Source of the DNA: an uncultured delta proteobacterium
GTDB lineage: Bacteria; Desulfobacterota; WTBG01; JAGOGO01
NCBI GenBank assembly: GCA_963727835.1
Contig: CAVSIB010000007.1
Coordinates: 4,429 to 68,428 of the forward strand
Length of the DNA: 64,000 nucleotides
Reading direction: 5' to 3'
This document shows, one piece after another, positions 18,464 through 31,643 of the stretch. The position numbers and the translations under genes were made by a program. The notes beneath the pieces are model-generated. The model was given only the letters and a program-made list of their open reading frames with translations. It did no database searches and was not told the origin of the DNA. How positions within the stretch are numbered: position 1 is the stretch's first letter; each line of letters begins with the position of its first letter.

Positions 18464-19879
18464 ATGGTTTTAAATAAGTTTACACCAAAAATCAAAATAA
18501 TTGATCTTTACCTATTTAAAGAGCTACTCACCACTTTTGGGTTATGTATCTTCATTTTTACTTTTACCATGCTCATGGGTCAGGTCTTCAAACTGACTGA
18601 AATGGTAATAAATAAAGGTCTTGGATTCGTAGCCACTTTAATGTTTTTAGGATTTATTCTTCCTTCCTTATTAATGTTCGTTATCCCCATGAGCCTTTTA
18701 CTCGGAATCCTCACCACCCTGGGAAGGATGTCAACTGATGGTGAAATTATTGCGCTTAAAGCCTCAGGCATTAGCCTTTCCCAAATTTTGCGGCCAATTC
18801 TAATGGTCGCGTTAATTGCATTTTTTGCGTCCAATTTTTTTAGCCTTTATTTAAGTCCCAAAGCAAATTACTCTTTAAAAAAACTGATTTTTGATGTTGC
18901 GAAAACCAAAGCAGAAGTTGGAATCAAAGAAGGGATATTCAATTCTGACTTCGAGGGTTTAACGATTTATGTTAACCACCTAGCCCCAGATGGGAAATTA
19001 GAGGGGGTCGTGGTATCTGATACCCGCCAAGCCGAAGAGCCTTTAACCATATTCGCCCAAGAGGGGTATTTAATCCCTCATCCTGAAGACCTTGCAATGA
19101 TCCTTCATTTAAAAAACGGCTGCAATCATCATCTTAGTCAAAGGCAAAAAAATTATCAAACATCTAATTTTGAAACGCAGGATCTGATACTAAACTTCCA
19201 AGACTCCTCTGCCGGACCTACAAAAAAGCAAAAGGAAATGTCACTTCAAGAATTATGGCAGTTCGCAGTCCAACAAAGGGACAACAAAGAAAAATATTAT
19301 GATATCTTAACAGAATTAAACAGCCGGTTTTCTACCCCTTTTGCTTGTTTAGTCTTTGGCTTTTTAGCAGTTCCACTCGGCATTTTTTCTCCCCGGGCCG
19401 GAAGAGCATACGGTTTTGTTATTAGTTTAATGGTAATACTCATATATTATATTCTTTTTTCTCTGGGAGAAAATATCGGCAGCCTTGGCATGGTGCATCC
19501 CATGATTGCCATGTGGGTACCTAATATATTTTTTCTTTTGCTCTCTTTCTACCTTTTCAAAAAAATAAAGTCTGAATCACCAATAATGATTTTAGAGAAA
19601 CTCAACTGGTGCCTGGAAATAATTAAAAATACATTTCGCCGTATTACCGAAGGAACAAAGTCCGAAAAATTCGACGACCTTCCCTCGCTCATGTGGGACA
19701 TTAATAACTCTACCAAAGATGGCCTGATGTTGAAGCTGGGCATTGGGGAAAAAAGGGCCGCTGCAATTATCGCCTATCGAGAAGCCCAGGGAGGCATAAA
19801 AGAGCTTGAGGAGCTAAAAAAAATCCGAGGCATTAGCGACAAAACCTTGAATAAAATTTTAGAGAATCTCCTTGGCTAA
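18464..19879 (+). CDS. lptF: LPS export permease LptF fused to a C-terminal ComEA-like helix-hairpin-helix domain
   Basis: RMSTDGEIIALKASGIS, PFACLVFGFLAVPLG, AMWVPN; tail DINNST..LGIGEKRAAAIIAYRE..G..LEELKKIRGI; one continuous ORF. Confidence 0.9.
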   Translation: MVLNKFTPKIKIIDLYLFKELLTTFGLCIFIFTFTMLMGQVFKLTEMVINKGLGFVATLMFLGFILPSLLMFVIPMSLLLGILTTLGRMSTDGEIIALKASGISLSQILRPILMVALIAFFASNFFSLYLSPKANYSLKKLIFDVAKTKAEVGIKEGIFNSDFEGLTIYVNHLAPDGKLEGVVVSDTRQAEEPLTIFAQEGYLIPHPEDLAMILHLKNGCNHHLSQRQKNYQTSNFETQDLILNFQDSSAGPTKKQKEMSLQELWQFAVQQRDNKEKYYDILTELNSRFSTPFACLVFGFLAVPLGIFSPRAGRAYGFVISLMVILIYYILFSLGENIGSLGMVHPMIAMWVPNIFFLLLSFYLFKKIKSESPIMILEKLNWCLEIIKNTFRRITEGTKSEKFDDLPSLMWDINNSTKDGLMLKLGIGEKRAAAIIAYREAQGGIKELEELKKIRGISDKTLNKILENLLG

Positions 19880-21004: not shown

Positions 21005-21111
21005 CATGAAAAGAATATCGTTACCCACGCGCTCAGAAAAGAGTGAATAACTAATTGTCTTCAGGGGTTAGTACTCATGAAAACCAAGTCCTTTTTCATC
21101 GGTTAATCAGC

Positions 21112-21702
21112 ATGTTAAATTTACCAAACATCTTAACTCTGAGCAGAATTGCTTTTATCCCGGTTTTGTTCATCCTGTTATTTTTTCCTGACAGAACAGC
21201 CAGCTTTTTTGCTGCCTTCTGTTTTGCCCTAGCCTCTCTCACTGACTTTTTAGATGGTTTTTTTGCTCGAAGAAGAAACAGTATTACCCGTCTGGGAAAA
21301 ATCCTTGATCCCTTGGCTGACAAGCTTTTGATCACTGCTTGTTTAATCATGCTTATTCCTCTTCATGGGGTTGCTGCCTGGGTGGTAGTCATCATCGTAT
21401 CCCGAGAAATAGCCATTACCGGCTTAAGAGGAATTGCCGCAATCGAGGGCTTAGTTATTCCTGCTGAAACGTTGGGAAAGAAAAAAACTGCTTTCCAGGT
21501 TGTTGCCGTCTTTTCCTTACTGCTCCATTATGAATATTTTCACATAAATTTTCATCAAATCGGAAACGTCTTATTATTCTTGGCTATGCTTCTGGCCGTA
21601 TGGTCAGGGTTAGTCTATTTCTATCGATTCTCCTTTTTGATCAACCTCATGCCTAAAGAAGAAAGAAGAGTTTCTGTTGACAGAACAAAAAATTTACTTT
21701 AG
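21112..21702 (+). CDS. pgsA: CDP-diacylglycerol--glycerol-3-phosphate 3-phosphatidyltransferase
   Basis: NLPNILTLSRI, TDFLDGFFARR, GKILDPLADK. Confidence 0.95.
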   Translation: MLNLPNILTLSRIAFIPVLFILLFFPDRTASFFAAFCFALASLTDFLDGFFARRRNSITRLGKILDPLADKLLITACLIMLIPLHGVAAWVVVIIVSREIAITGLRGIAAIEGLVIPAETLGKKKTAFQVVAVFSLLLHYEYFHINFHQIGNVLLFLAMLLAVWSGLVYFYRFSFLINLMPKEERRVSVDRTKNLL

Positions 21703-21800: not shown

Positions 21801-21873
21801 GGCGGCATAGCCAAGTGGCTAAGGCAGAGGTCTGCAAAACCTTTATTCCCCGGTTCGAATCCGGGTGCCGCCT
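21801..21873 (+). tRNA. tRNA-Cys(GCA)
   Basis: GGCGGCA/TGCCGCC acceptor, anticodon loop CTGCAAA, T-loop GTTCGAATC. Confidence 0.96.
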
Positions 21874-21885
21874 CTTGTAATTTCA

Positions 21886-21916
21886 ATGGGTTAGCGTTTT
21901 TCGTTAGCCCATTTTT
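21886..21916 (+). terminator. Island-side terminator after tRNA-Cys
   Basis: AATGGGTTAGCG-ttttt-CGTTAGCCCATT then TTTT. Confidence 0.6.
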
Positions 21917-22092
21917 GTTTTCTGGTTTGGTATAGGTTTGGTTTTTTTATCCAATTCATCGATGTTCGTTCTGCTTTCTCTTGGCAACCATTTATAATAA
22001 TTTTTATACGTCAAATCCGTGTTTCCGTGTCCCATTTCTTTACTAACCTCTGCCAGTGAATCCCCTTTGCTCACTCTGGAAGGATACACCAC
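21904..22092 (-). pseudogene. C-terminal remnant of a phage-type tyrosine integrase
   Basis: SKGDSLAEVSKEMGHGNTDLTYKNYYKW matches the box II GH....T...Y pattern; adjacent to attL. Confidence 0.7.
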
Positions 22093-22453
22093 CTATCCTC
22101 CTAAACACAACTTTCAACTATATCTCATCGTTTTATGGTTAATTCCAAGTCAACAAATTTACCAACCGACATTGATTATAAAGAGCAATAAAACACAAGC
22201 CGGAGATTAAGGGGATTAAAAAGGAAAGGGAGAAAAGGAATAATTTTTTTTGGAAGCATAATTTTTTCCCCTAAACATTAAAATTATCTACTCACCTTTG
22301 ACATAATATTTTCTCTTTAATTATAAACACGGCACAGTAACGGCAAACGATATACTGTGCCTGGGAATGCAATCTACCGACAGCAACCACTATCAACACC
22401 TAACCCCAAACTCCCCAACTCCTTTTTGGTAAGACTTAAAAATCGCAAGCGGG

Positions 22454-22481
22454 GGAAGTTCAATTCTTCCCTGACCCGCCA
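22454..22481 (+). other. tRNA-like 3' fragment (T-arm, acceptor strand, CCA)
   Basis: GGAAG-TTCAATT-CTTCC-CTGACCC-G-CCA has canonical spacing; no matching 5' half. Confidence 0.55.
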
Positions 22482-23287
22482 TCGGTTTCCCGGGATGCTT
22501 CCTTTCCCTTGATTTTTTTAAATAACTCCCGAAGGATTTTTTTCCGCCAAAGCAATTCTTCTTTGGTGACATGATTCCGGCTGCGCCAAAGAGAAATTTT
22601 TTTGCTGTTCCGGTAAGGAGTATCGCGCAAAGGTGAGGTGGTGAAATTATTTTTCCATAAAACATAGGTAAAACTTAATTGGTCTCTTCGGGAATAGTTT
22701 TCAACCCACCACCACCAGTCCTCCATGATTTTGATGACTTCTTTATCATGATGTTCCCGGTAGATGATATTATTTTCAAAAAGGCCGTAGTTTTCAGGGA
22801 AGCCGTCCTTTCTTATCAAATCAATCTGCTCTTTCATGATTTCACGGTCATCTTTCTCAAACTTTAAACAGGCAATGAACTCATCATAAACACAATTTCT
22901 GCCGGGGTGGATTCCAAGAGAAATCTTTTTTGATTCCTTGATAGCGCGGTTAATATCGTCAAAAATTTTATCACTGAGGAAATTTATATTCGTGTCAACA
23001 TAAACGCTTCTTTCATAGTCGGGGAATAAGAGATGCGGGTGAAGTTTATGCCATCGGTTGTTGCGGACATCATCCATTGTGTCGAAAACCAGGGGCTTAA
23101 GGTTCCAGGTGGAATTGTTATTGTTTTTTATCGCTAGCTTGTCGGTAAAACAAACATAATCCCAATCCGGGTTGATAGCGGAGTGATTGTTCAACTGGTC
23201 ATAATTTCCGGTTAGGCAGGTATAGAGGACTACTTTTTTTTTAAGAGAAAGCATGATAAATTTCTCGATTATTTTTTTTAAAGCCAT
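22460..23287 (-). CDS. DUF616 (TOD1/MUCI70-like) glycosyltransferase, probably 3'-truncated
   Basis: VVLYTCLTGNYD, DYVCFTD, RWHKLHPHLLFPDYERSVYVD, HPGRNCVYDE, SRRDQLSFTYVLWK. Confidence 0.8.
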   Translation of the reverse strand: MALKKIIEKFIMLSLKKKVVLYTCLTGNYDQLNNHSAINPDWDYVCFTDKLAIKNNNNSTWNLKPLVFDTMDDVRNNRWHKLHPHLLFPDYERSVYVDTNINFLSDKIFDDINRAIKESKKISLGIHPGRNCVYDEFIACLKFEKDDREIMKEQIDLIRKDGFPENYGLFENNIIYREHHDKEVIKIMEDWWWWVENYSRRDQLSFTYVLWKNNFTTSPLRDTPYRNSKKISLWRSRNHVTKEELLWRKKILRELFKKIKGKEASRETDGGSGKN

Positions 23288-23408
23288 TATATCATAATAG
23301 AGTTTTTTTATTAAAATTTTATGATATAATTTTGTTATTTTAAGTAAAAAACTATAAAATAAAGGAGTCGGAAGGAATACGTCAAACTGTTGATGGAGAG
23401 ACCATTAT

Positions 23409-23837
23409 ATGTTGAGCAAAAAATATAGAATTAATGAATCGAAGGCCATCAGTGAAACTATTGACGGAGAGGCCATCATAGTCAATTTAGATACTGGTTT
23501 TTATTATAGTGCCAATAAAACTGCGACTATTATATGGAATGAAATTCAGGAGAATAATTCCATTAAAAATATATCTCACTTTTTTTTAAATCATTATGAA
23601 GTGGATGAAGACACCTTGGAAAAATATATGACCGAAATAATTAGCTTATTTTTGAAAGATGATCTTATTTTGAAATCAGAGCCGGATAGTTCTCCCGATA
23701 GTATAGGGAATCCAACGAATAGTATAAAGGAAACATTCATAATACCTAAAATTGAAAGATATGATGACATGGCAGGAGCTTTAATGTCCGATCCGGTTCA
23801 TGATGCCAATGAAGACGGTTGGCCAAATTTAAAATAA
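23409..23837 (+). CDS. PqqD/RRE-domain protein with a C-terminal peptide extension
   Basis: IDGEAIIVNLDTGFYYSANKTATIIWN..HYEVD..L..DDLI is the PqqD/RRE pattern; followed by a linker and tail FIIPKIERYDDMAGALMSDPVHDANEDGWPNLK. Confidence 0.85.
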   Translation: MLSKKYRINESKAISETIDGEAIIVNLDTGFYYSANKTATIIWNEIQENNSIKNISHFFLNHYEVDEDTLEKYMTEIISLFLKDDLILKSEPDSSPDSIGNPTNSIKETFIIPKIERYDDMAGALMSDPVHDANEDGWPNLK

Positions 23838-24011
23838 TAAAAATTATTTTAAATTATTGCTCCGGCAAATAAATATATAAAAGCATGATCGCCATTCTCA
23901 ATAACGACGGGCATTGCACAGAATTTTTTTACATGTTTAATTGCCGAAGTAATATATCATCATCTCCTATCTCGATCATTAAAAAAGAAATCTCATCTCC
24001 TACCTGAAAAT

Positions 24012-25106
24012 ATGAACAATTTTCCATCGCACATTGTTACCAATCAGCACCTTCGTATTACGAAAAAATACTTTAATGATGTCGTGGTGCCGATTATGAA
24101 TGATATTGCCAACTCAATTCCGCCCATTAAAAAGACCTATGCTATCGCCGGGAAAACTATTTGTCTGAATTTTTATAGCAAGATACTTTTTGAAAAAATG
24201 TCCCGGGCTTTTAGCCATATCGAAGAAGATGCAGTCAATTCTCCCGATTTGACGGTATGCATTTGGGATTCGGTATCTACCAACACCCATCTTGCTTCCC
24301 CATGGGTGAACCAGTCAGAATATACCTATCCACGAGAAGTAAATGCAAAAACGATAAATGTAGATTCTTTTTTGGGAATATACCTGCATGGTGAAGAAAC
24401 ATTAAATTTATATGATGAGAAGAATAATACGGCTTACTTTTGGACACACAATGCCGAATGTTTGCTGTATAGAATAAGTGGTTCACCACTAAGGTCAATA
24501 TTGAATTGGTTTCTCTCCAAAGAAGGAGTGCATTTAATGCATGGGGCAGCGGTAAGCACAAAGGGGAAATCGATATTGCTTTCCGCCAAGGGCGGATCAG
24601 GAAAATCAACCACCGCTTTATCATGTTTGTTTTCCGACATGGAATTTTTAGGAGATGATTATGTAACAATAAAGTCGGGTGATGTTATTACGACTCACAG
24701 TATTTTTAATTCGGTAAAAATATTTTCACTATCTCTGGATAAAACCTTTCCCGCGCTAAAAGAAAAAATATGGAATAAAAACGACGTTGCGTTGGAGAAG
24801 GAAAAAGCAATTGTTTTTTTGTCAGAATTATTTCCGCAACATATTATCAGGGAAGCACCGCTTCATGCCATCATGATTCCGGTGATTAAAGATATTAAAA
24901 AAACGAAGATTGTGCCCGCTCGTAAATTAGATACGATGATTGCCATGATGCCCGCCACGCTTTTCCAATTTTCTTTCATCCCATCAAATAAAATGGCTGA
25001 ATTAAGGTCAATTGTTGAGAGGACACCATGCTACTTTTTAGAGCTTGGCGGCGATATTCCCGGTGTGCCCGACGTAATTAAATCTTTTTTGTCCCATGAA
25101 GAATAA
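24012..25106 (+). CDS. HPr-kinase-related P-loop kinase
   Basis: LMHGAAV....SILLSAKGGSGKSTTAL....FLGDDYV: the HPrK-type His, Walker A and DD signature. Confidence 0.85.
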   Translation: MNNFPSHIVTNQHLRITKKYFNDVVVPIMNDIANSIPPIKKTYAIAGKTICLNFYSKILFEKMSRAFSHIEEDAVNSPDLTVCIWDSVSTNTHLASPWVNQSEYTYPREVNAKTINVDSFLGIYLHGEETLNLYDEKNNTAYFWTHNAECLLYRISGSPLRSILNWFLSKEGVHLMHGAAVSTKGKSILLSAKGGSGKSTTALSCLFSDMEFLGDDYVTIKSGDVITTHSIFNSVKIFSLSLDKTFPALKEKIWNKNDVALEKEKAIVFLSELFPQHIIREAPLHAIMIPVIKDIKKTKIVPARKLDTMIAMMPATLFQFSFIPSNKMAELRSIVERTPCYFLELGGDIPGVPDVIKSFLSHEE

Positions 25107-25785
25107 TCGTGTAAGTGTTTTAATGCCGGTCTTTAATGCTGAAAAATATGTTGAGGAGGCAACGAAAAGCGTCTTATCTCAAACCTATAAAAACATAGAA
25201 TTGATCTGTATCAACGATAACTCAACCGATAGTTCTTTGGCTCGATTAGAATCATTCGGAGATGAAATTATAGTTATTAATAATAAAGATAATTTTGGAA
25301 CTTCAGAATCAAGAAATAAAGGTATTCGTCGTGCGAAGGGGGAATTCTTAGCTTTTATTGATAATGATGATATCTGGGAAAAAAATAAATTGGAAGTTCA
25401 GATGAATCACTTTAATAATAATCCTAAGCTGGATATTTCATTTTCTTATATGAAATGTTTTTTAAGTCCGGAATTAAGCGAAGAGGTAAAGAACCTTCGC
25501 TATTGTCCGCCACGTCCTCTGCCCGGATATATTCCTTCAACGATGGTAGTGAAAAGGGCTTCCTTTGACCGGGTTGGTTATTTTGATGCGCGATGGAAAA
25601 ATGGAGAATCGGTTGACTGGTTGTTCAAGGCTAAAGAAGCTGGTTTAAATTTTGGGATCGTTGATGATGTTCTGGTTAAAAGAAGAATTCATGAAACCAA
25701 TAAGGGGGCTTTAGCATCATCGACGAATAAAAGTGAATATTTAAAAATAATCAGAGAATCATTAGCCCGAAGAAGAAAACAATGA
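25096..25785 (+). CDS. GT2 family glycosyltransferase
   Basis: VSVLMPVFNAEKY, INDNSTD, RNKGI, AFIDNDDIW, RRIHETN. Confidence 0.92.
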   Translation: MKNNRVSVLMPVFNAEKYVEEATKSVLSQTYKNIELICINDNSTDSSLARLESFGDEIIVINNKDNFGTSESRNKGIRRAKGEFLAFIDNDDIWEKNKLEVQMNHFNNNPKLDISFSYMKCFLSPELSEEVKNLRYCPPRPLPGYIPSTMVVKRASFDRVGYFDARWKNGESVDWLFKAKEAGLNFGIVDDVLVKRRIHETNKGALASSTNKSEYLKIIRESLARRRKQ

Positions 25786-25815
25786 ATAGCAGGCCGGTTA
25801 ACCTATTTAAAAATC

Positions 25816-26985
25816 ATGAGAGATTTTAAATATCCAAAAAGTTTTCCCAATAAAGAAGAAAATTTTTTCCTTCAGATGCTGCTTTCAAGCAAAAATGATT
25901 TTCCGAAATTATGGCAGCAATGGAAAGACCAGATTGTTTTTGATCGCCTGGATAAAGCCACCGCAAAATTAATTCCTTTTTTGTATTTGCGATTAAAGGA
26001 ATTGAACATCCCGGATGATGAGATCAAGAGGATAAAAGGAGTACACCAATTTACCTGGTATAAGAATCTGTTAGTTATCGATGCGGTGAGAAAGGTTATC
26101 TCTTTATTTAAGAAAGAAAACATTCCGGTCATTTTACTCAAAGGAGTGCCTTTATTAAAGAATGTCTATAAGAATACCGGAGCGCGGTCTATTGCCGATG
26201 TGGATATGCTTATCGATCAAAAACATGTCGAAAAAGCGACCGAGATAATGAAGGCCAATGACTGGGAATTTTTTGAGCAATCTCCTTTTGCTCTTAACCG
26301 GATTTCAGCGCCGCTGGCAAATAAATATATCAAAGAGATTGCTTTTATTAATAAGCAGGATGTCCGGATAGATATACACTGGCGCTTGTTCATGTATTTA
26401 TTCAAGGACAACAAAGAACATCCGATGTGCTATGAGGAGGTATTCAACCATTCCCTTGATTTCAAGCTGCACGGGGTCAGATGTAAAATCCCCTGCCATG
26501 AAGACATGATTATTCATATTATTGTTCATGGGGCGGAGCAGATTTTTCAAAGAACCTTGCGATGGGCGCTCGATGTGGCAAGTCTTATCAGAACGACGCC
26601 CATTGACTGGGAATTCTTGATCAAACGCATCAAGAAATTTGATGTGGCAATAGAGCTTAAGGTCGCTTTTTCTTATTTGTTAAAAAACTTCTCCCTTCCG
26701 ATTCCCGAATCGTTCATCAAAGCGCTTTCACAATTACCGATGGAAAAGAGTAAGAAGAAAGACTATTATCGAATGGCGAATAATACCGAGTTTTTACTCT
26801 GTGGGAAACTATGGTATTTATGGCGCGGTTATTGGCTCTATGAAAGAAAGGGTAATTTTTTTACCAGCTGGTATTATTTTATCGATTATACCTGCAAAAG
26901 CCTGGGAATTAACAGTAAACGGAGGCTTCCCGCTTTCATCATCGAGAAATATAAACCGAGAATAAGCGTTTTTTTTCATAAATAA
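25816..26985 (+). CDS. Nucleotidyltransferase family protein (NTP_transf_5-like)
   Basis: IPVILLKGVPL...Y...GARSIADVDMLI, IDIHWRL, IIHIIVHG, LRWALDV, IDWE. Confidence 0.85.
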   Translation: MRDFKYPKSFPNKEENFFLQMLLSSKNDFPKLWQQWKDQIVFDRLDKATAKLIPFLYLRLKELNIPDDEIKRIKGVHQFTWYKNLLVIDAVRKVISLFKKENIPVILLKGVPLLKNVYKNTGARSIADVDMLIDQKHVEKATEIMKANDWEFFEQSPFALNRISAPLANKYIKEIAFINKQDVRIDIHWRLFMYLFKDNKEHPMCYEEVFNHSLDFKLHGVRCKIPCHEDMIIHIIVHGAEQIFQRTLRWALDVASLIRTTPIDWEFLIKRIKKFDVAIELKVAFSYLLKNFSLPIPESFIKALSQLPMEKSKKKDYYRMANNTEFLLCGKLWYLWRGYWLYERKGNFFTSWYYFIDYTCKSLGINSKRRLPAFIIEKYKPRISVFFHK

Positions 26986-26990
26986 TAAAT

Positions 26991-27833
26991 ATGAAAATAA
27001 ATATCATCTCAACCGACAATCAATACCTTGCCTCGGATTATACCATCACCAATTTAGTTGATGGTAATGATATCTTTTTTAATACCCCGCAGGATATAAA
27101 TATTATCAACAAAAGCAAGACCGGGGACTATGTAGGATATAAAAAGAAAGATGATCGTATATATGGTTTAAGAATTGTTGATGATGTGGCTTACTGGTTC
27201 AATCGTTTTTATAAAAACGAAGCGATTTCATTTTTTGTGGTTTCTTCCTATGAATCTTATCTTTTATTAACCAACGAACTTGAATGCGAAAAACCGGTAT
27301 TATATTTGGAAGATGTGATAATGACGCCTCCCATATCCGATGATATTATCAAAAGTAACCGGATTTATACCTTTTTCAATCCGATTAATCTGGACGCCAG
27401 ATTATTGGAGATGGAAAACATTGATATTTACACCGCCGATTCCTATTTTATGGATGATGAAGTGATTAACTGCAATTTCCGCGGCAGAGCCAAAGGTAAA
27501 TTTTTTGAGTGGACTCCCGGTTGTGTCAGCGAATACGCTTGCTACCATACCGCTTATATTTATTATGACCGGAAGCACCCGGAGGCGTTAAATAAATTGA
27601 AATCAATCAACAGACTGTCTCAATGTTTTTATTTTAACCAGGAAGTGATAACCAATTATCCCGGCAGGTTCCATCCCGCCATGGAGAAAGAATTAAAGAG
27701 AGAAAAAAGCGACGATGAATTTTATCGAATATCCGGAAATACCAGAAGGATATTTGACCGGTTTTTATCACCGGAGGTTATTAAAAATAATTTGATTAAT
27801 TTTTGTAATAAATTAATGACAGTTAAGGAATGA
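26991..27833 (+). CDS. Hypothetical protein, last gene of the island operon
   Basis: 280-aa ORF starting 5 bp after the nucleotidyltransferase; no family recognised. Confidence 0.7.
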   Translation: MKINIISTDNQYLASDYTITNLVDGNDIFFNTPQDINIINKSKTGDYVGYKKKDDRIYGLRIVDDVAYWFNRFYKNEAISFFVVSSYESYLLLTNELECEKPVLYLEDVIMTPPISDDIIKSNRIYTFFNPINLDARLLEMENIDIYTADSYFMDDEVINCNFRGRAKGKFFEWTPGCVSEYACYHTAYIYYDRKHPEALNKLKSINRLSQCFYFNQEVITNYPGRFHPAMEKELKREKSDDEFYRISGNTRRIFDRFLSPEVIKNNLINFCNKLMTVKE

Positions 27834-28281
27834 GCCTATCAAAATTTTGACATAATTTTGAAAAAAAATAGGCCATTATTGAAAGGTAGTAAAGGCTTTC
27901 TGGGGAAGAATTTAAAGCATCAGCCCCTGCAACATTAGTCGTTACCCTTAGTTCTTTCTTTAATAGTTCCTTTAATTCATCAATTCGGGATACAATCAGG
28001 TCAAATGCACGGAGGCCATTTTTAAAAAACTGATTCCCCCACTCTATTTGTTGAAATGGTTCTTTTTTTATTTCTAAAGGGGATTCCCTTAACTTTTCCC
28101 TCTCATCTGGTTGCAGTCCTTTTGAGCGTGGAAAGAACTTCGGTAGCCATCTCAAATGTTGTTTCTCCATTCCATTTTTTATTTTTTCGATTTCTTCATC
28201 AGCTTCTGGCAAACGAACCTCAAATTTAACTTTCTCTGAACCACCAGGTTTTTTTATTAAACGTCTTCCTCGGCGATACAT
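27823..28281 (-). CDS. Hypothetical protein near attR, possibly a mobile-element remnant
   Basis: 152-aa ORF converging on the operon; no motif recognised. Confidence 0.4.
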   Translation of the reverse strand: MYRRGRRLIKKPGGSEKVKFEVRLPEADEEIEKIKNGMEKQHLRWLPKFFPRSKGLQPDEREKLRESPLEIKKEPFQQIEWGNQFFKNGLRAFDLIVSRIDELKELLKKELRVTTNVAGADALNSSPESLYYLSIMAYFFSKLCQNFDRLIP

Positions 28282-28604: not shown

Positions 28605-28647
28605 TCTGCAAAACCTTTATTCCCCGGTTCGAATCCGGGTGCCGCCT
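28605..28647 (+). repeat. attR: duplicated 3' 43 bp of tRNA-Cys
   Basis: TCTGCAAAACCTTTATTCCCCGGTTCGAATCCGGGTGCCGCCT, identical to 21831-21873. Confidence 0.97.
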
Positions 28648-28655
28648 TTCGTACC

Positions 28656-30479: not shown

Positions 30480-31643
30480 ATGGGAGAACCAATTAAAATT
30501 GCATTAGTGGGCGTGGGAAATTGTGTAGCCGCCTTACTTCAGGGACTTGAATATTACCGGCATAATCCTGAAGATACGCTCGGCCTTATGCACAAGGCGC
30601 TGGGTGGCTATCTGCCGAGCGATATCCGAGTCGTTGCTGCTTTTGATATTGACGCGCGAAAAGTGGAAAAAGCTCTGGAAGTGGCTATCAATGCAAAGCC
30701 CAATTGCATCATGCCTATTTGGAAAGAACTCCCCCATTATGGAGTGACCGTGAAAATGGGTCCGGTCATGGATGGCGTTGCCGGCCATATGCTGGACTAT
30801 CCTGACGATCGTGCTTTCCGGATCGCTAAGGCCTCCCCCGTTGATGTCGAACAAATCCTTCGAGAGAAAGAACCCGATATTCTCCTCAACTATTTACCCG
30901 TGGGATCAGAGGAAGCTGCGCGGTATTATGCCCGGTGTTGCCTAAATACCGGGGTGAGTTTTATCAATTGCATGCCGGTTTTTATTGTTTCCGATTCGGA
31001 TTGGGCTAAGAAGTTTTTGAAACGCGGAATTCCCGTAATCGGTGATGATGTTAAATCTCAGCTTGGCGCAACCATTCTCCACAGAACTTTAGCCCGCCTT
31101 TTTGAAGAAAGGGGAACCCGAATAGAGCGGACCTATCAGCTCAACACCGGCGGCAATACCGACTTTCTCAATATGCTGGAACGAAGCCGGCTCATAACCA
31201 AAAAACAATCAAAAACCAGATCCGTTCAATCCCAGCTCGAAGTACCGCTCGCTGATGAAAATATCCATATCGGTCCTTCGGACTATGTTCCCTGGCAGAA
31301 TGACAATAAGGTTTGTTTTATCCGGATGGAAGCACGCGGGTTTGCCGGTATACCCTTTGAATTAGAATGCCGTCTCTCGGTCCAAGACTCACCGAACAGT
31401 GCTGGAGTGACGATTGATGCGATCCGTTACTGTAAAGTAGCCCGTGATCGGCACGATGCAGGGGCATTGCTTCCTATCTCTGCCTATTGCATGAAACACC
31501 CACCAGTGCAGATGTATGATCATGAGGCGAGGAAATTGATCGAAGAGTACATTCATCAACCCTCTTCTGAATCGGCAGAGGAGGAGAACAAAGCCATAAG
31601 CATTAAAAAGGGTAAAACCCTTCCCTTTAAAAGCTCGATTTAG
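30480..31643 (+). CDS. ino1: Myo-inositol-1-phosphate synthase
   Basis: VGVGNC, NYLPVGS, GDDVKSQLGAT, YQLNTGGNTDFLNM, DSPNSAGV. Confidence 0.94.
   Translation: MGEPIKIALVGVGNCVAALLQGLEYYRHNPEDTLGLMHKALGGYLPSDIRVVAAFDIDARKVEKALEVAINAKPNCIMPIWKELPHYGVTVKMGPVMDGVAGHMLDYPDDRAFRIAKASPVDVEQILREKEPDILLNYLPVGSEEAARYYARCCLNTGVSFINCMPVFIVSDSDWAKKFLKRGIPVIGDDVKSQLGATILHRTLARLFEERGTRIERTYQLNTGGNTDFLNMLERSRLITKKQSKTRSVQSQLEVPLADENIHIGPSDYVPWQNDNKVCFIRMEARGFAGIPFELECRLSVQDSPNSAGVTIDAIRYCKVARDRHDAGALLPISAYCMKHPPVQMYDHEARKLIEEYIHQPSSESAEEENKAISIKKGKTLPFKSSI

Follow-up and report, generated by a model that had tools for sequence, protein, structure and literature searches.

A cyclase-free cassette of a tailed RRE protein, an HPrK-like kinase, glycosyltransferases and a nucleotidyltransferase-fold protein on a tRNA-Cys island: a candidate phospho-glycosylation system

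The contig CAVSIB010000007.1 of an uncultured delta proteobacterium (assembly GCA_963727835.1) was analyzed over 64,000 nt, hereafter called the window, in which a 6.8-kb island at a tRNA-Cys gene carries a compact operon. Its five intact open reading frames (ORFs) encode a protein with a PqqD-type RiPP recognition element (RRE), an HPrK-like kinase, a GT2 glycosyltransferase, an NTP_transf_5 nucleotidyltransferase-fold protein and a 280-aa orphan, and a DUF616-type glycosyltransferase gene lies divergently beside them (Table 1). Our data favor the view that this cassette represents a cyclase-independent phospho-glycosylation system related to the linear polyphosphorylated peptides (LPPs), with the kinase as docking partner of a self-loaded RRE-tail adaptor; we assign a probability of roughly 0.55 to this reading. 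Compared to the triad of RRE, kinase and nucleotidyltransferase in LPP and lasso peptide clusters, the fused leader-like motif, the invariant tail, the missing precursor gene, the GT2s as core genes and the spread across phyla are distinguishing features. The six genes had been proposed from the sequence alone as a peptide-modification system (the original prediction); all of them were found as ORFs exactly where they had been placed, and their families were recovered by Pfam, except for the kinase, which stays under the cut-off, and the 280-aa ORF.

Table 1. Features of the island and its integration site (window coordinates).
Feature	Position	Strand	Evidence or remark
tRNA-Cys (GCA), integration target	21801..21874	+	ARAGORN
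attL, 49-nt direct repeat over the 3' end of tRNA-Cys	21831..21879		repeat and abutting flanks in G002 and G003
Tyrosine integrase 3' remnant, 62 codons	21904..22092	-	similarity to G001 integrase
TOD1/MUCI70 (DUF616-type) glycosyltransferase-like, divergent	22460..23287	-	Pfam 3.1e-12; PHROG glycosyltransferase 3e-12
RRE-tail protein, 142 aa	23409..23837	+	Pfam PqqD 3.6e-9, 37.3 bits (cut-off 23.4)
Conserved motif, codons 107-139 of the RRE-tail gene	23727..23825	+	alignments, tail profile
Spacer stretch, 98 nt, missing from a variant allele	23855..23952		joint 23854->23953 in contigs of runs X3 and X1
HPrK-like P-loop kinase	24012..25106	+	Hpr_kinase_C 4.5e-4, homologue profile, core motifs
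GT2, soluble single-domain type	25096..25785	+	Glycos_transf_2 8.5e-34
NTP_transf_5 nucleotidyltransferase-fold protein	25816..26985	+	Pfam 6e-39
280-aa orphan, probable compact GT-B-fold glycosyltransferase	26991..27833	+	AlphaFold2 model and fold search
ORF, 152 aa, function not assigned	27823..28281	-	inside island
attR, second copy of the 49-nt repeat	28605..28653

Recurrence of the cassette across phyla

Related loci were collected by a pattern scan for the kinase with one genome per species, by which 80 of 201 encoding loci were kept. Using the window proteins in tblastn, the RRE protein was detected in 76, the GT2 in 78 and the NTP_transf_5 protein in 61 of these 80 kinase loci, and many of the misses were contig ends. 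At 48 loci, with flanks examined over 10 kb, the sequence extends at least 1.5 kb upstream and at least 8 kb downstream of the kinase, and here the RRE protein and the GT2 were found in 48/48 each and NTP_transf_5 in 45/48. The RRE gene ends not more than 1 kb upstream of the kinase gene on the same strand in 72 of the 76 loci. In the recurrent arrangement, RRE and kinase are followed by one to five GT2s, then by accessory genes that vary, and last by NTP_transf_5. In the window, the first 11 nt of the GT2 gene are shared with the end of the kinase gene, and the following gaps measure 30 nt and 5 nt. The DUF616-type gene and the 280-aa ORF, each present in two of the 80 related loci, are lineage-specific extras and not core genes; the latter had been counted as a hypothetical member of the operon and is probably a GT-B glycosyltransferase. 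The cassette is spread over about 20 phyla, as judged by the titles given by the submitters, with carriers among Patescibacteria, Cyanobacteriota, Acidobacteriota, Chloroflexota, Thermodesulfobacteriota, Planctomycetota, Chlamydiota, Actinomycetota, Bacteroidota and others. Cultured carriers are known as well, namely Anabaena sp. UHCC 0204, Limnofasciculus baicalensis BBK-W-15 and Floridaenema fluviatile BLCC-F154.

ORF clustering was done for 77 loci plus the window, while L048, L079 and L083 with unclustered kinase ORFs were omitted. The most frequent accessory families were an MsbA-type ABC exporter (19 loci), GT4 (16), SDR (12) and SMP-30-like proteins (9), followed by GlcNAc-2-epimerase-like proteins (8), GDP-mannose dehydratase (7), weakly sulfotransferase-like proteins (5), TPR-GT2 (5), Wzx-like proteins (3), NTP_transf_5-Wzx fusions (3) and Wzy_C (3). 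Methyltransferases occur among the accessory genes, too.

No conserved separate precursor gene accompanies the cassette. Small ORFs encoded on the strand of the kinase (20-119 aa; 464 in the 77 loci and the window) were screened for the pattern [YWF]xxPx[LVIFAM] and compared with each other. Truncated RRE tails were the only recurring family, hence a separate precursor gene was rejected; a precursor with the motif YxxPxVLxHQxIxFETxxS was likewise absent from this set. A 40-aa ORF in the spacer between the RRE and kinase genes (23885-24007) was also ruled out as precursor, because it needs the 98-nt stretch missing in a natural allele and because the corresponding spacer is only 64-66 nt long in L004 and L005, so that the ORF is not conserved. 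The RRE-presented peptide of the original prediction thus found no support in these loci, and the only conserved peptide-like element is the tail of the RRE protein itself.

It could be argued that the island is the decayed rest of a paeninodin-type lasso cluster, from which cyclase, B2 peptidase, precursor and exporter were lost while the tailoring genes were left. The RRE is of the lasso B1 type by profile and predicted fold (see below), HprK-like kinases and NTP transferases are known as lasso tailoring enzymes (PMC6993621, PMC13381572), and the truncated integrase shows that decay does occur in this island. However, the same cyclase-free set is found in 48/48 full-flank loci and in about 20 phyla, the five operon ORFs are intact, and the tail is strongly constrained. 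Moreover, annotation of the neighbors, comprising 18 cluster representatives and 201 first-of-cluster or singleton ORFs out of the 664 that are 100 aa or longer in the cluster zones, yielded a single Asn_synthase, which carries GATase domains and belongs to L027, a locus without RRE, and neither a Transglut_core3 protein nor a signal peptidase. In the genome of the window (84% complete), no match to Transglut_core3 (PF13471), the family of the B2 peptidase, was found at all; Asn_synthase, the family of the lasso cyclase, is absent from the contig of the window and has three weak matches elsewhere, and none of the 37 Radical_SAM matches of the genome is located on this contig. The original statement that cyclase, B2 peptidase and radical SAM enzymes are missing was thus upheld, whereas the missing peptide exporter was established for the island, where no exporter including an MsbA-like LppD was detected, and no window-wide exporter search was made. 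A remnant is very improbable and close to excluded, because the related loci keep the gene set together without lasso cyclase and B2 peptidase in their annotated neighborhoods. The unit of kinase, RRE-tail protein, GT2 and NTP_transf_5 is free-standing, as had been suspected from the single operon, and the annotated neighborhoods of its homologous loci did not show the lasso cyclase, peptidase and conserved separate precursor that a deletion remnant would lead one to expect.

The annotated neighbors further included three Radical_SAM proteins, one of which adjoins the L004 cluster. In this locus, the closest relative, a radical SAM/SPASM protein is encoded directly past the cassette on the opposite strand (L004:13881-15086, minus strand); it is not part of the window island.

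The tailed RRE protein and the kinase

The RRE protein is composed of a PqqD/RRE domain, a variable linker, an FxxPxL motif and a distal conserved tail. The proposed RRE was verified by its Pfam PqqD match above the cut-off (Table 1). Profile searches against solved structures returned TbiB1 (1e-17), PbaB1 (9x90_B, 3.3e-14) and LppB (9x8z_B, 2.6e-6), and the AlphaFold2 (AF2) model fits TbiB1 with a template modeling (TM) score of 0.89 and a root-mean-square deviation (rmsd) of 1.0 A. According to this profile and the predicted fold, the domain is an RRE of the lasso PqqD type (B1); the NCBIfam model lasso_PqqD_Bac gave 40.7 bits against a cut-off of 80.

Behind the linker, the aligned RRE proteins share the pattern K..F..P.L.K[Y/F].DM..LL.LDPIH[DE]V[DE]E.GWP. 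This motif of residues 107-139 is the most conserved element of the system, since mean pairwise identity amounts to 71% over residues 120-139, compared to 37% in the FxxPxL segment, 34% in the RRE domain, 9% in the linker and 40% in the kinase. D128, P129, H131, W138 and P139 are each present in 63/63 tails, while P113 is kept in 60 and an aromatic residue (F/Y/W) at position 110 in 57 of them. A profile of the 48-residue tail alone matched 3159 representative proteins at E<=0.001, and 1866 when the limit was set to 1e-10; the targets are representatives of protein clusters at 50% identity. In the top 150 matches the motif is located close to the C-terminus of proteins of mostly 140-165 aa. 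Short matches mostly start within the last RRE helix or the linker and resemble cut gene calls, and the search for shorter stand-alone tail peptides gave one match, on a 1.2-kb contig.

Some further observations concern this gene family. The conserved tail had been overlooked in the original prediction. One tail-profile match, P0254 (284 aa), consists of tandem RRE-tail modules with a degenerate first and an intact second tail. In the genome of the window itself, C29:19145-19506 (locus L003 ~1501-1862) contains a second PqqD match within a frame of 63 aa, and apart from it a 53-aa frame that resembles the tail (E 1.6e-4); it lies next to an IS200-like transposase ORF with no kinase nearby, and looks like a decayed second RRE-tail gene.

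The FxxPxL motif resembles the [Y/W]xxPx[L/V/I/F/A] leader motif that is bound by lasso and LPP RREs. In the AF2 model, the RRE domain has predicted local distance difference test (pLDDT) values above 90, residues 111-120 reach 90 and form a strand at 115-118, and residues 121-142 drop to 44-53. The strand lies in register with the place where leaders extend the RRE sheet in solved lasso and LPP structures, since in the PbaB1 and LppB complexes the leader residues past PxL extend this sheet (PMC13381572). Hence, we infer from model and motif that the RRE domain may bind its own leader-like FxxPxL segment in cis.

The kinase matches Pfam Hpr_kinase_C with 20.2 bits in the P-loop region only, under the cut-off of 33.3, the NCBIfam models HprK_rel_A (TIGR04352) with 25.8 and HprK_rel_B with about 26 bits at cut-offs of 200 each, and TIGR00679, the equivalog of HPr kinase/phosphorylase, with 22.9 bits versus 240, that is below the level of a true equivalog. 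A profile of 18 homologues, however, matched HPrK/P structures (1jb1, E 2.1e-5) over the core of His-Gly, P-loop and Asp-Asp, and H177, G197-K198-S199-T200-T201 and D216 are invariant in the family. Judged from these alignments, the HPrK-like identity is strengthened by both the structure-profile match and the invariant core motifs. Precomputed annotation lists the kinase under Pfam 38 PF27840 ('ScmC'), which is not returned by the Pfam release searched directly. A word-indexed protein search gave 127 relatives, the nearest of them 73-77% identical and labeled as metagenome-assembled genomes of Smithella or Deltaproteobacteria, and in a quick tree of 78 rows the window kinase falls into a 15-row clade (SH-aLRT 100) dominated by Patescibacteria. 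Kinase paralogues in same-genus genomes are just 30-34% identical, which fits a horizontal arrival. One of these paralogues (G002:C57:49013-50055, 33% identity) contains one in-frame TGA and one TAG and may be a pseudogene.

A partnership of RRE protein and kinase was recovered in structure prediction. Using alignments of the kinase and the RRE-tail protein, the predicted complex reached a score of 0.85, compared to 0.00 for the best of three controls; a mark at this level is reached by 58/80 solved complexes and 2/110 mismatched pairs, which serves as a rough guide here since custom alignments were used. Three runs agreed in at least 75% of the contacts with partner pLDDT values of at least 80. 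The predicted interface involves residues 10-34 of the RRE and 118, 120-121, 124-125 and 136-139 of the tail on the one side, and residues 8-14, 96-98, 110-113, 124-129, 146, 193 and 304-336 of the kinase on the other, of which residue 193 is the start of the P-loop. Natural fusions exist of PqqD with kinase (P0105), kinase with GT2 (P0038) and GT2 with kinase (P0090), and in P0105 the tail is shrunk to LLASDQHFGW. Collectively, the model supports the notion that the RRE sheet and the tail dock on the kinase. To our knowledge, a complex of an RRE with an HprK-like kinase has not been solved.

Proposed pathway, acceptors and described systems

The other enzymes of the island point to glycosyl transfer. 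In the NTP_transf_5 family, D130 of the D-V-D motif is kept in 63/71 proteins, and a comparison of the window protein with PDB sequences gave no match; PsmN from the pseudomycoidin cluster presumably belongs to Pfam PF14907. In three patescibacterial loci (L008, L015, L016), NTP_transf_5 is fused to a Wzx-like Polysacc_synt domain in proteins of about 800-870 aa, which would put the enzyme at the membrane beside the flippase. The GT2 shows a weak, generic match to MftF (4.1e-19, 68.8 bits versus 280). The 280-aa ORF has no Pfam or NCBIfam family and 26 homologues, nearly all of them at least 69% identical. Its AF2 model (pLDDT 71) found nothing at E<=0.001 in a Foldseek search of the PDB, but in the Foldseek-independent VIA-align the top 27 rows were all GT-B glycosyltransferases (best Z 9.9, rmsd 4.3 A over 236 residues), including the peptide O-glycosyltransferases Gtf3, GtfA and SdgB. 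The Atlas gave a weak lead at rank 13, with Glyco_trans_1_2 on 36% of a single cluster. The fold comparison suggests that this protein is probably a third glycosyltransferase, with GT-B fold.

Based on these findings the following pathway can be proposed. The lasso-B1-type RRE would grip FxxPxL in its own C-terminal extension, as the AF2 model and the motif suggest. The self-loaded adaptor would then dock via its beta-sheet and the invariant tail on the kinase, in line with the controlled complex prediction and the RRE-kinase fusion. In the third step, the kinase may phosphorylate an acceptor hydroxyl and NTP_transf_5 add the first sugar to the phosphate, by analogy with LppK/PsmK and PsmN. 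Finally, the GT2, here together with the DUF616-type and GT-B-like enzymes, would extend the glycan, which would be consistent with the invariant linkage and the kinase-GT2 fusions. Both versions of the earlier idea, a phospho-glyco-peptide and a protein-primed glycan, stay compatible with the data.

Several observations weigh against the proposed phospho-glycosylation system. A conserved phospho-acceptor is not evident in the tail, because none of its hydroxyl residues is invariant: Y118 is replaced by F in 12/63 tails, and position 119 is T/S in 41/63, A in 7/63 and D in the window protein. Consequently, the tail as phospho-acceptor was rejected in the strict sense of an invariant Ser, Thr or Tyr among the 63 tails. 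The kinase lies below every curated cut-off in the libraries searched, the docking is a model and not a measurement and backs binding without demonstrating it, and the cis-binding of FxxPxL was read from secondary structure and pLDDT alone and not from contacts. The island has neither an exporter nor a protease. Regarding the analogous enzymes, LppN was inactive in the heterologous host (PMC13381572), and the chemistry of PsmN itself was left unresolved (PMC6993621). Furthermore, certain related loci carry classical genes for lipid-linked glycans (Bac_transf, Wzx-like, Wzy_C, Wzt/ABC-2, WecG), which fit a non-peptide acceptor.

The latter genes lead to the alternative that the cassette belongs to a conventional surface polysaccharide module based on undecaprenyl phosphate. 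The RRE-tail protein, the kinase and NTP_transf_5 would then control the glycan or decorate it, for instance by phosphorylating sugars or by nucleotidylation, so that a non-peptide glycan or lipid is the acceptor and no peptide becomes modified. Such a role would explain why glycan genes (GT4, SDR, epimerase and those just named) make up the accessory genes of related loci and why NTP_transf_5 occurs fused to a Wzx-like flippase, and it would be in line with a tail without invariant hydroxyl. However, a priming phosphoglycosyltransferase was found in only one locus (L008) among the annotated representatives and is absent from the island. Both the fold of the RRE and its leader-like motif belong to peptide recognition, and the nearest characterized kinases act on a peptide Ser (PMC13381572). 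The commonest transporter, moreover, is the MsbA-type exporter known from LPP and lasso clusters. Weighing these points, we regard the polysaccharide module as unlikely.

It might also be that the RRE-tail protein is a permanently leader-loaded adaptor that keeps the enzymes switched on, with unlinked leaderless peptides or proteins such as surface proteins of the host as substrates. A non-conserved cis precursor and the tail lacking an invariant acceptor residue would be expected in this case, and a 6.8-kb island without substrate gene would function in a new host. The predicted interface, in which the kinase is held by the RRE sheet as well as the tail, is compatible with such an adaptor, and the shortened tail of the P0105 fusion would be expected if the tail were largely a tether. 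The constraint on the tail is the counter-argument, because 20 residues at 71% identity across phyla exceed what is usual for a tether, and a remnant of the motif survives even in the covalent fusion P0105; furthermore, no candidate for a trans substrate was identified. We consider this adaptor role somewhat unlikely, albeit a serious alternative.

Within the phospho-glycosylation reading, the RRE-tail protein as self-presenting scaffold is our tentative candidate for the acceptor, with a chance that we rate a little short of even, and the lacking invariant hydroxyl of the tail is the main argument against it. A more far-reaching version, in which the RRE-tail protein serves as soluble carrier in place of undecaprenyl phosphate, receives a mono- or diphosphate from the kinase, the first sugar from NTP_transf_5 and its extension from the GT2s, before the glycan is exported or handed on, appears quite doubtful.

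The closest described system are the LPP clusters of Bacillota (LppA/K/B/S/D/N), followed by the tailoring module of paeninodin and pseudomycoidin. Popov et al. (2026, Nat Commun) described LPPs as products of an RRE, an HprK-like kinase and an NTP transferase without cyclase, in which LppK polyphosphorylates Ser3 of the discrete precursor LppA (PMC13381572). Both systems keep a cyclase-free lasso-type RRE, an HprK-like kinase and an NTP transferase together, often amid polysaccharide genes, and share the leader logic ([Y/W]xxPx[V/L] in LPPs, FxxPxL here). The MsbA-like exporter, an LPP component, occurs in 19 loci related to our cassette but not in the island. In contrast to LPPs, the cassette has no discrete precursor and no SipW-like SpI leader peptidase corresponding to LppS, no signal-peptidase family being detected in the island ORFs or the annotated neighbors; instead, it fuses a leader-like motif to the RRE, which is followed by the invariant DPIH..GWP tail, and includes GT2s as core genes. 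It is also found in about 20 phyla, whereas LPPs, like paeninodins, are restricted to Bacillota according to Popov et al. (PMC13381572). In the paeninodin/pseudomycoidin module (PadeK/PsmK, PsmN) an HprK-family kinase acts on a precursor Ser and an NTP-transferase-fold enzyme is linked to a hexose, a logic like that of the pathway proposed here; PsmN was needed for the hexose on phospho-Ser, and a D134A/D136A mutant was inactive (Zyubko et al. 2019, PMC6993621). Both have an RRE of the B1 type, as indicated by PbaB1, but unlike the paeninodin and pseudomycoidin clusters the island is without cyclase, B2 peptidase, precursor and exporter.

With regard to its novelty, the system is thus less undescribed than originally stated, since LPPs already combine a cyclase-free RRE with an HprK-like kinase and an NTP transferase, while the tail-bearing, GT2-rich cassette was without a description in the literature searched. 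This search, which had supplements outside its scope, returned lasso and LPP papers, one unrelated paper for PF14907 and nothing on SynChlorMet.

Three other neighborhoods show more distant similarities. In the SynChlorMet cassette, the HPrK-like protein ScmC (TIGR04249/PF27840) is likewise encoded beside a PqqD homologue, and the window kinase is assigned to PF27840 in the precomputed annotation; unlike ScmC, however, it reaches 14.1 bits with TIGR04249 at a cut-off of 125, and there is no radical SAM/SPASM partner in the island or Radical_SAM protein on the contig. The HPr-rel-A neighborhood (TIGR04352 with PqqD_rel_X, TIGR04353), to which a nucleotidyltransferase belongs as well, is a recognized but uncharacterized pairing of an HprK-like kinase with PqqD; here, TIGR04352 stays at 25.8 of 200 bits, and TIGR04353 was not matched in the genome. 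In mycofactocin biosynthesis, the RRE MftB is involved and the GT2 MftF adds a glycan to the product made from a highly conserved peptide C-terminus. The combination of RRE, conserved peptide C-terminus and GT2 on both sides can be taken as an analogy only, and unlike mycofactocin the present cassette has no radical SAM enzyme or peptidase but a kinase and a nucleotidyltransferase.

The tRNA-Cys island and implications

The genes had been placed inside att sites, and this was corroborated by the two 49-nt repeats, which are 96% identical over their 49 nt, and by empty sites in two same-genus genomes, in which the island flanks abut (G002:C33 41178/41180 and G003:C261 3249/3244). Direct repeats at the 3' end of a tRNA gene, an integrase, here as remnant, and an empty site in relatives, which together characterize a tRNA-integrated island, were all found. 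The GC content is 0.33-0.39 within the island compared to 0.40-0.46 outside. Beside tRNA-Cys, G001 carries a Phage_integrase ORF of 394 aa, whose C-terminal ~50 residues share 86% identity with the integrase remnant, and the remnant ORF (21904-22092) searched alone gave no Pfam match. The cassette entered the genome by integration at tRNA-Cys and has since been fixed through the loss of most of the integrase. Around L004 and L005 no tRNAs or att-like repeats were found, and mobility is demonstrated for the window island alone.

The tRNA-Cys site is an integration hot spot. In G001 (C1 ~240898-273377) it is occupied by other DNA of about 32 kb, which includes two extra att copies and the intact 394-aa integrase. 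In all four runs compared, there are contigs that have just a piece of about 32 nt (window 22082-22114) in common and run on into unrelated sequence on both sides, which fits a breakpoint region of integrase truncation common to other elements.

DNA of the island occurs in metagenome runs from peat and permafrost. Two RNA libraries of a single study yielded contigs over parts of it, including a 1091-nt piece (24700-25790) with the 3' end of the kinase gene and the GT2 gene, which gives a weak sign of transcription at best, since DNA carry-over is possible. A promoter and terminator scan returned many promoter-like matches in the AT-rich DNA and nothing usable. PADLOC anti-phage models matched 0/8 island proteins, and PHROGs gave glycosyltransferase matches plus a weak one (E 0.0034) between the RRE protein and a family without assigned function, and nothing else. 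A defense system was rejected on the grounds of these PADLOC and PHROG results. The 152-aa ORF (27823-28281) reached the cut-off of no family in Pfam, NCBIfam, PADLOC and PHROG and is absent from all 80 related loci.

The island is flanked by genes for a CDP-alcohol phosphatidyltransferase (PgsA by NCBIfam; 21055-21702) and a myo-inositol-1-phosphate synthase (30480-31643), the latter of which hints at inositol-containing lipids or solutes in the organism. Further upstream (18464-19879), an LptF permease with a fused C-terminal ComEA-like helix-hairpin-helix (Pfam HHH_3, 2.7e-12) shows an unusual architecture.

So far, the triad of RRE, HprK-like kinase and NTP transferase has been associated with lasso peptides, and the LPPs of Bacillota were added in 2026. 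The cassette described here represents a much larger, cross-phylum branch, for which the tail alone defines no fewer than 3159 protein clusters (50% identity). As compact unit of five or six genes on a 6.8-kb island, it offers a handle on the role of NTP_transf_5 enzymes and of a self-loaded RRE. If the RRE-tail protein itself were the acceptor, glycans would be assembled here by a new route, and if it acted as carrier, thousands of bacteria including Patescibacteria and cyanobacteria would possess a protein-primed, phosphodiester-linked glycan assembly.

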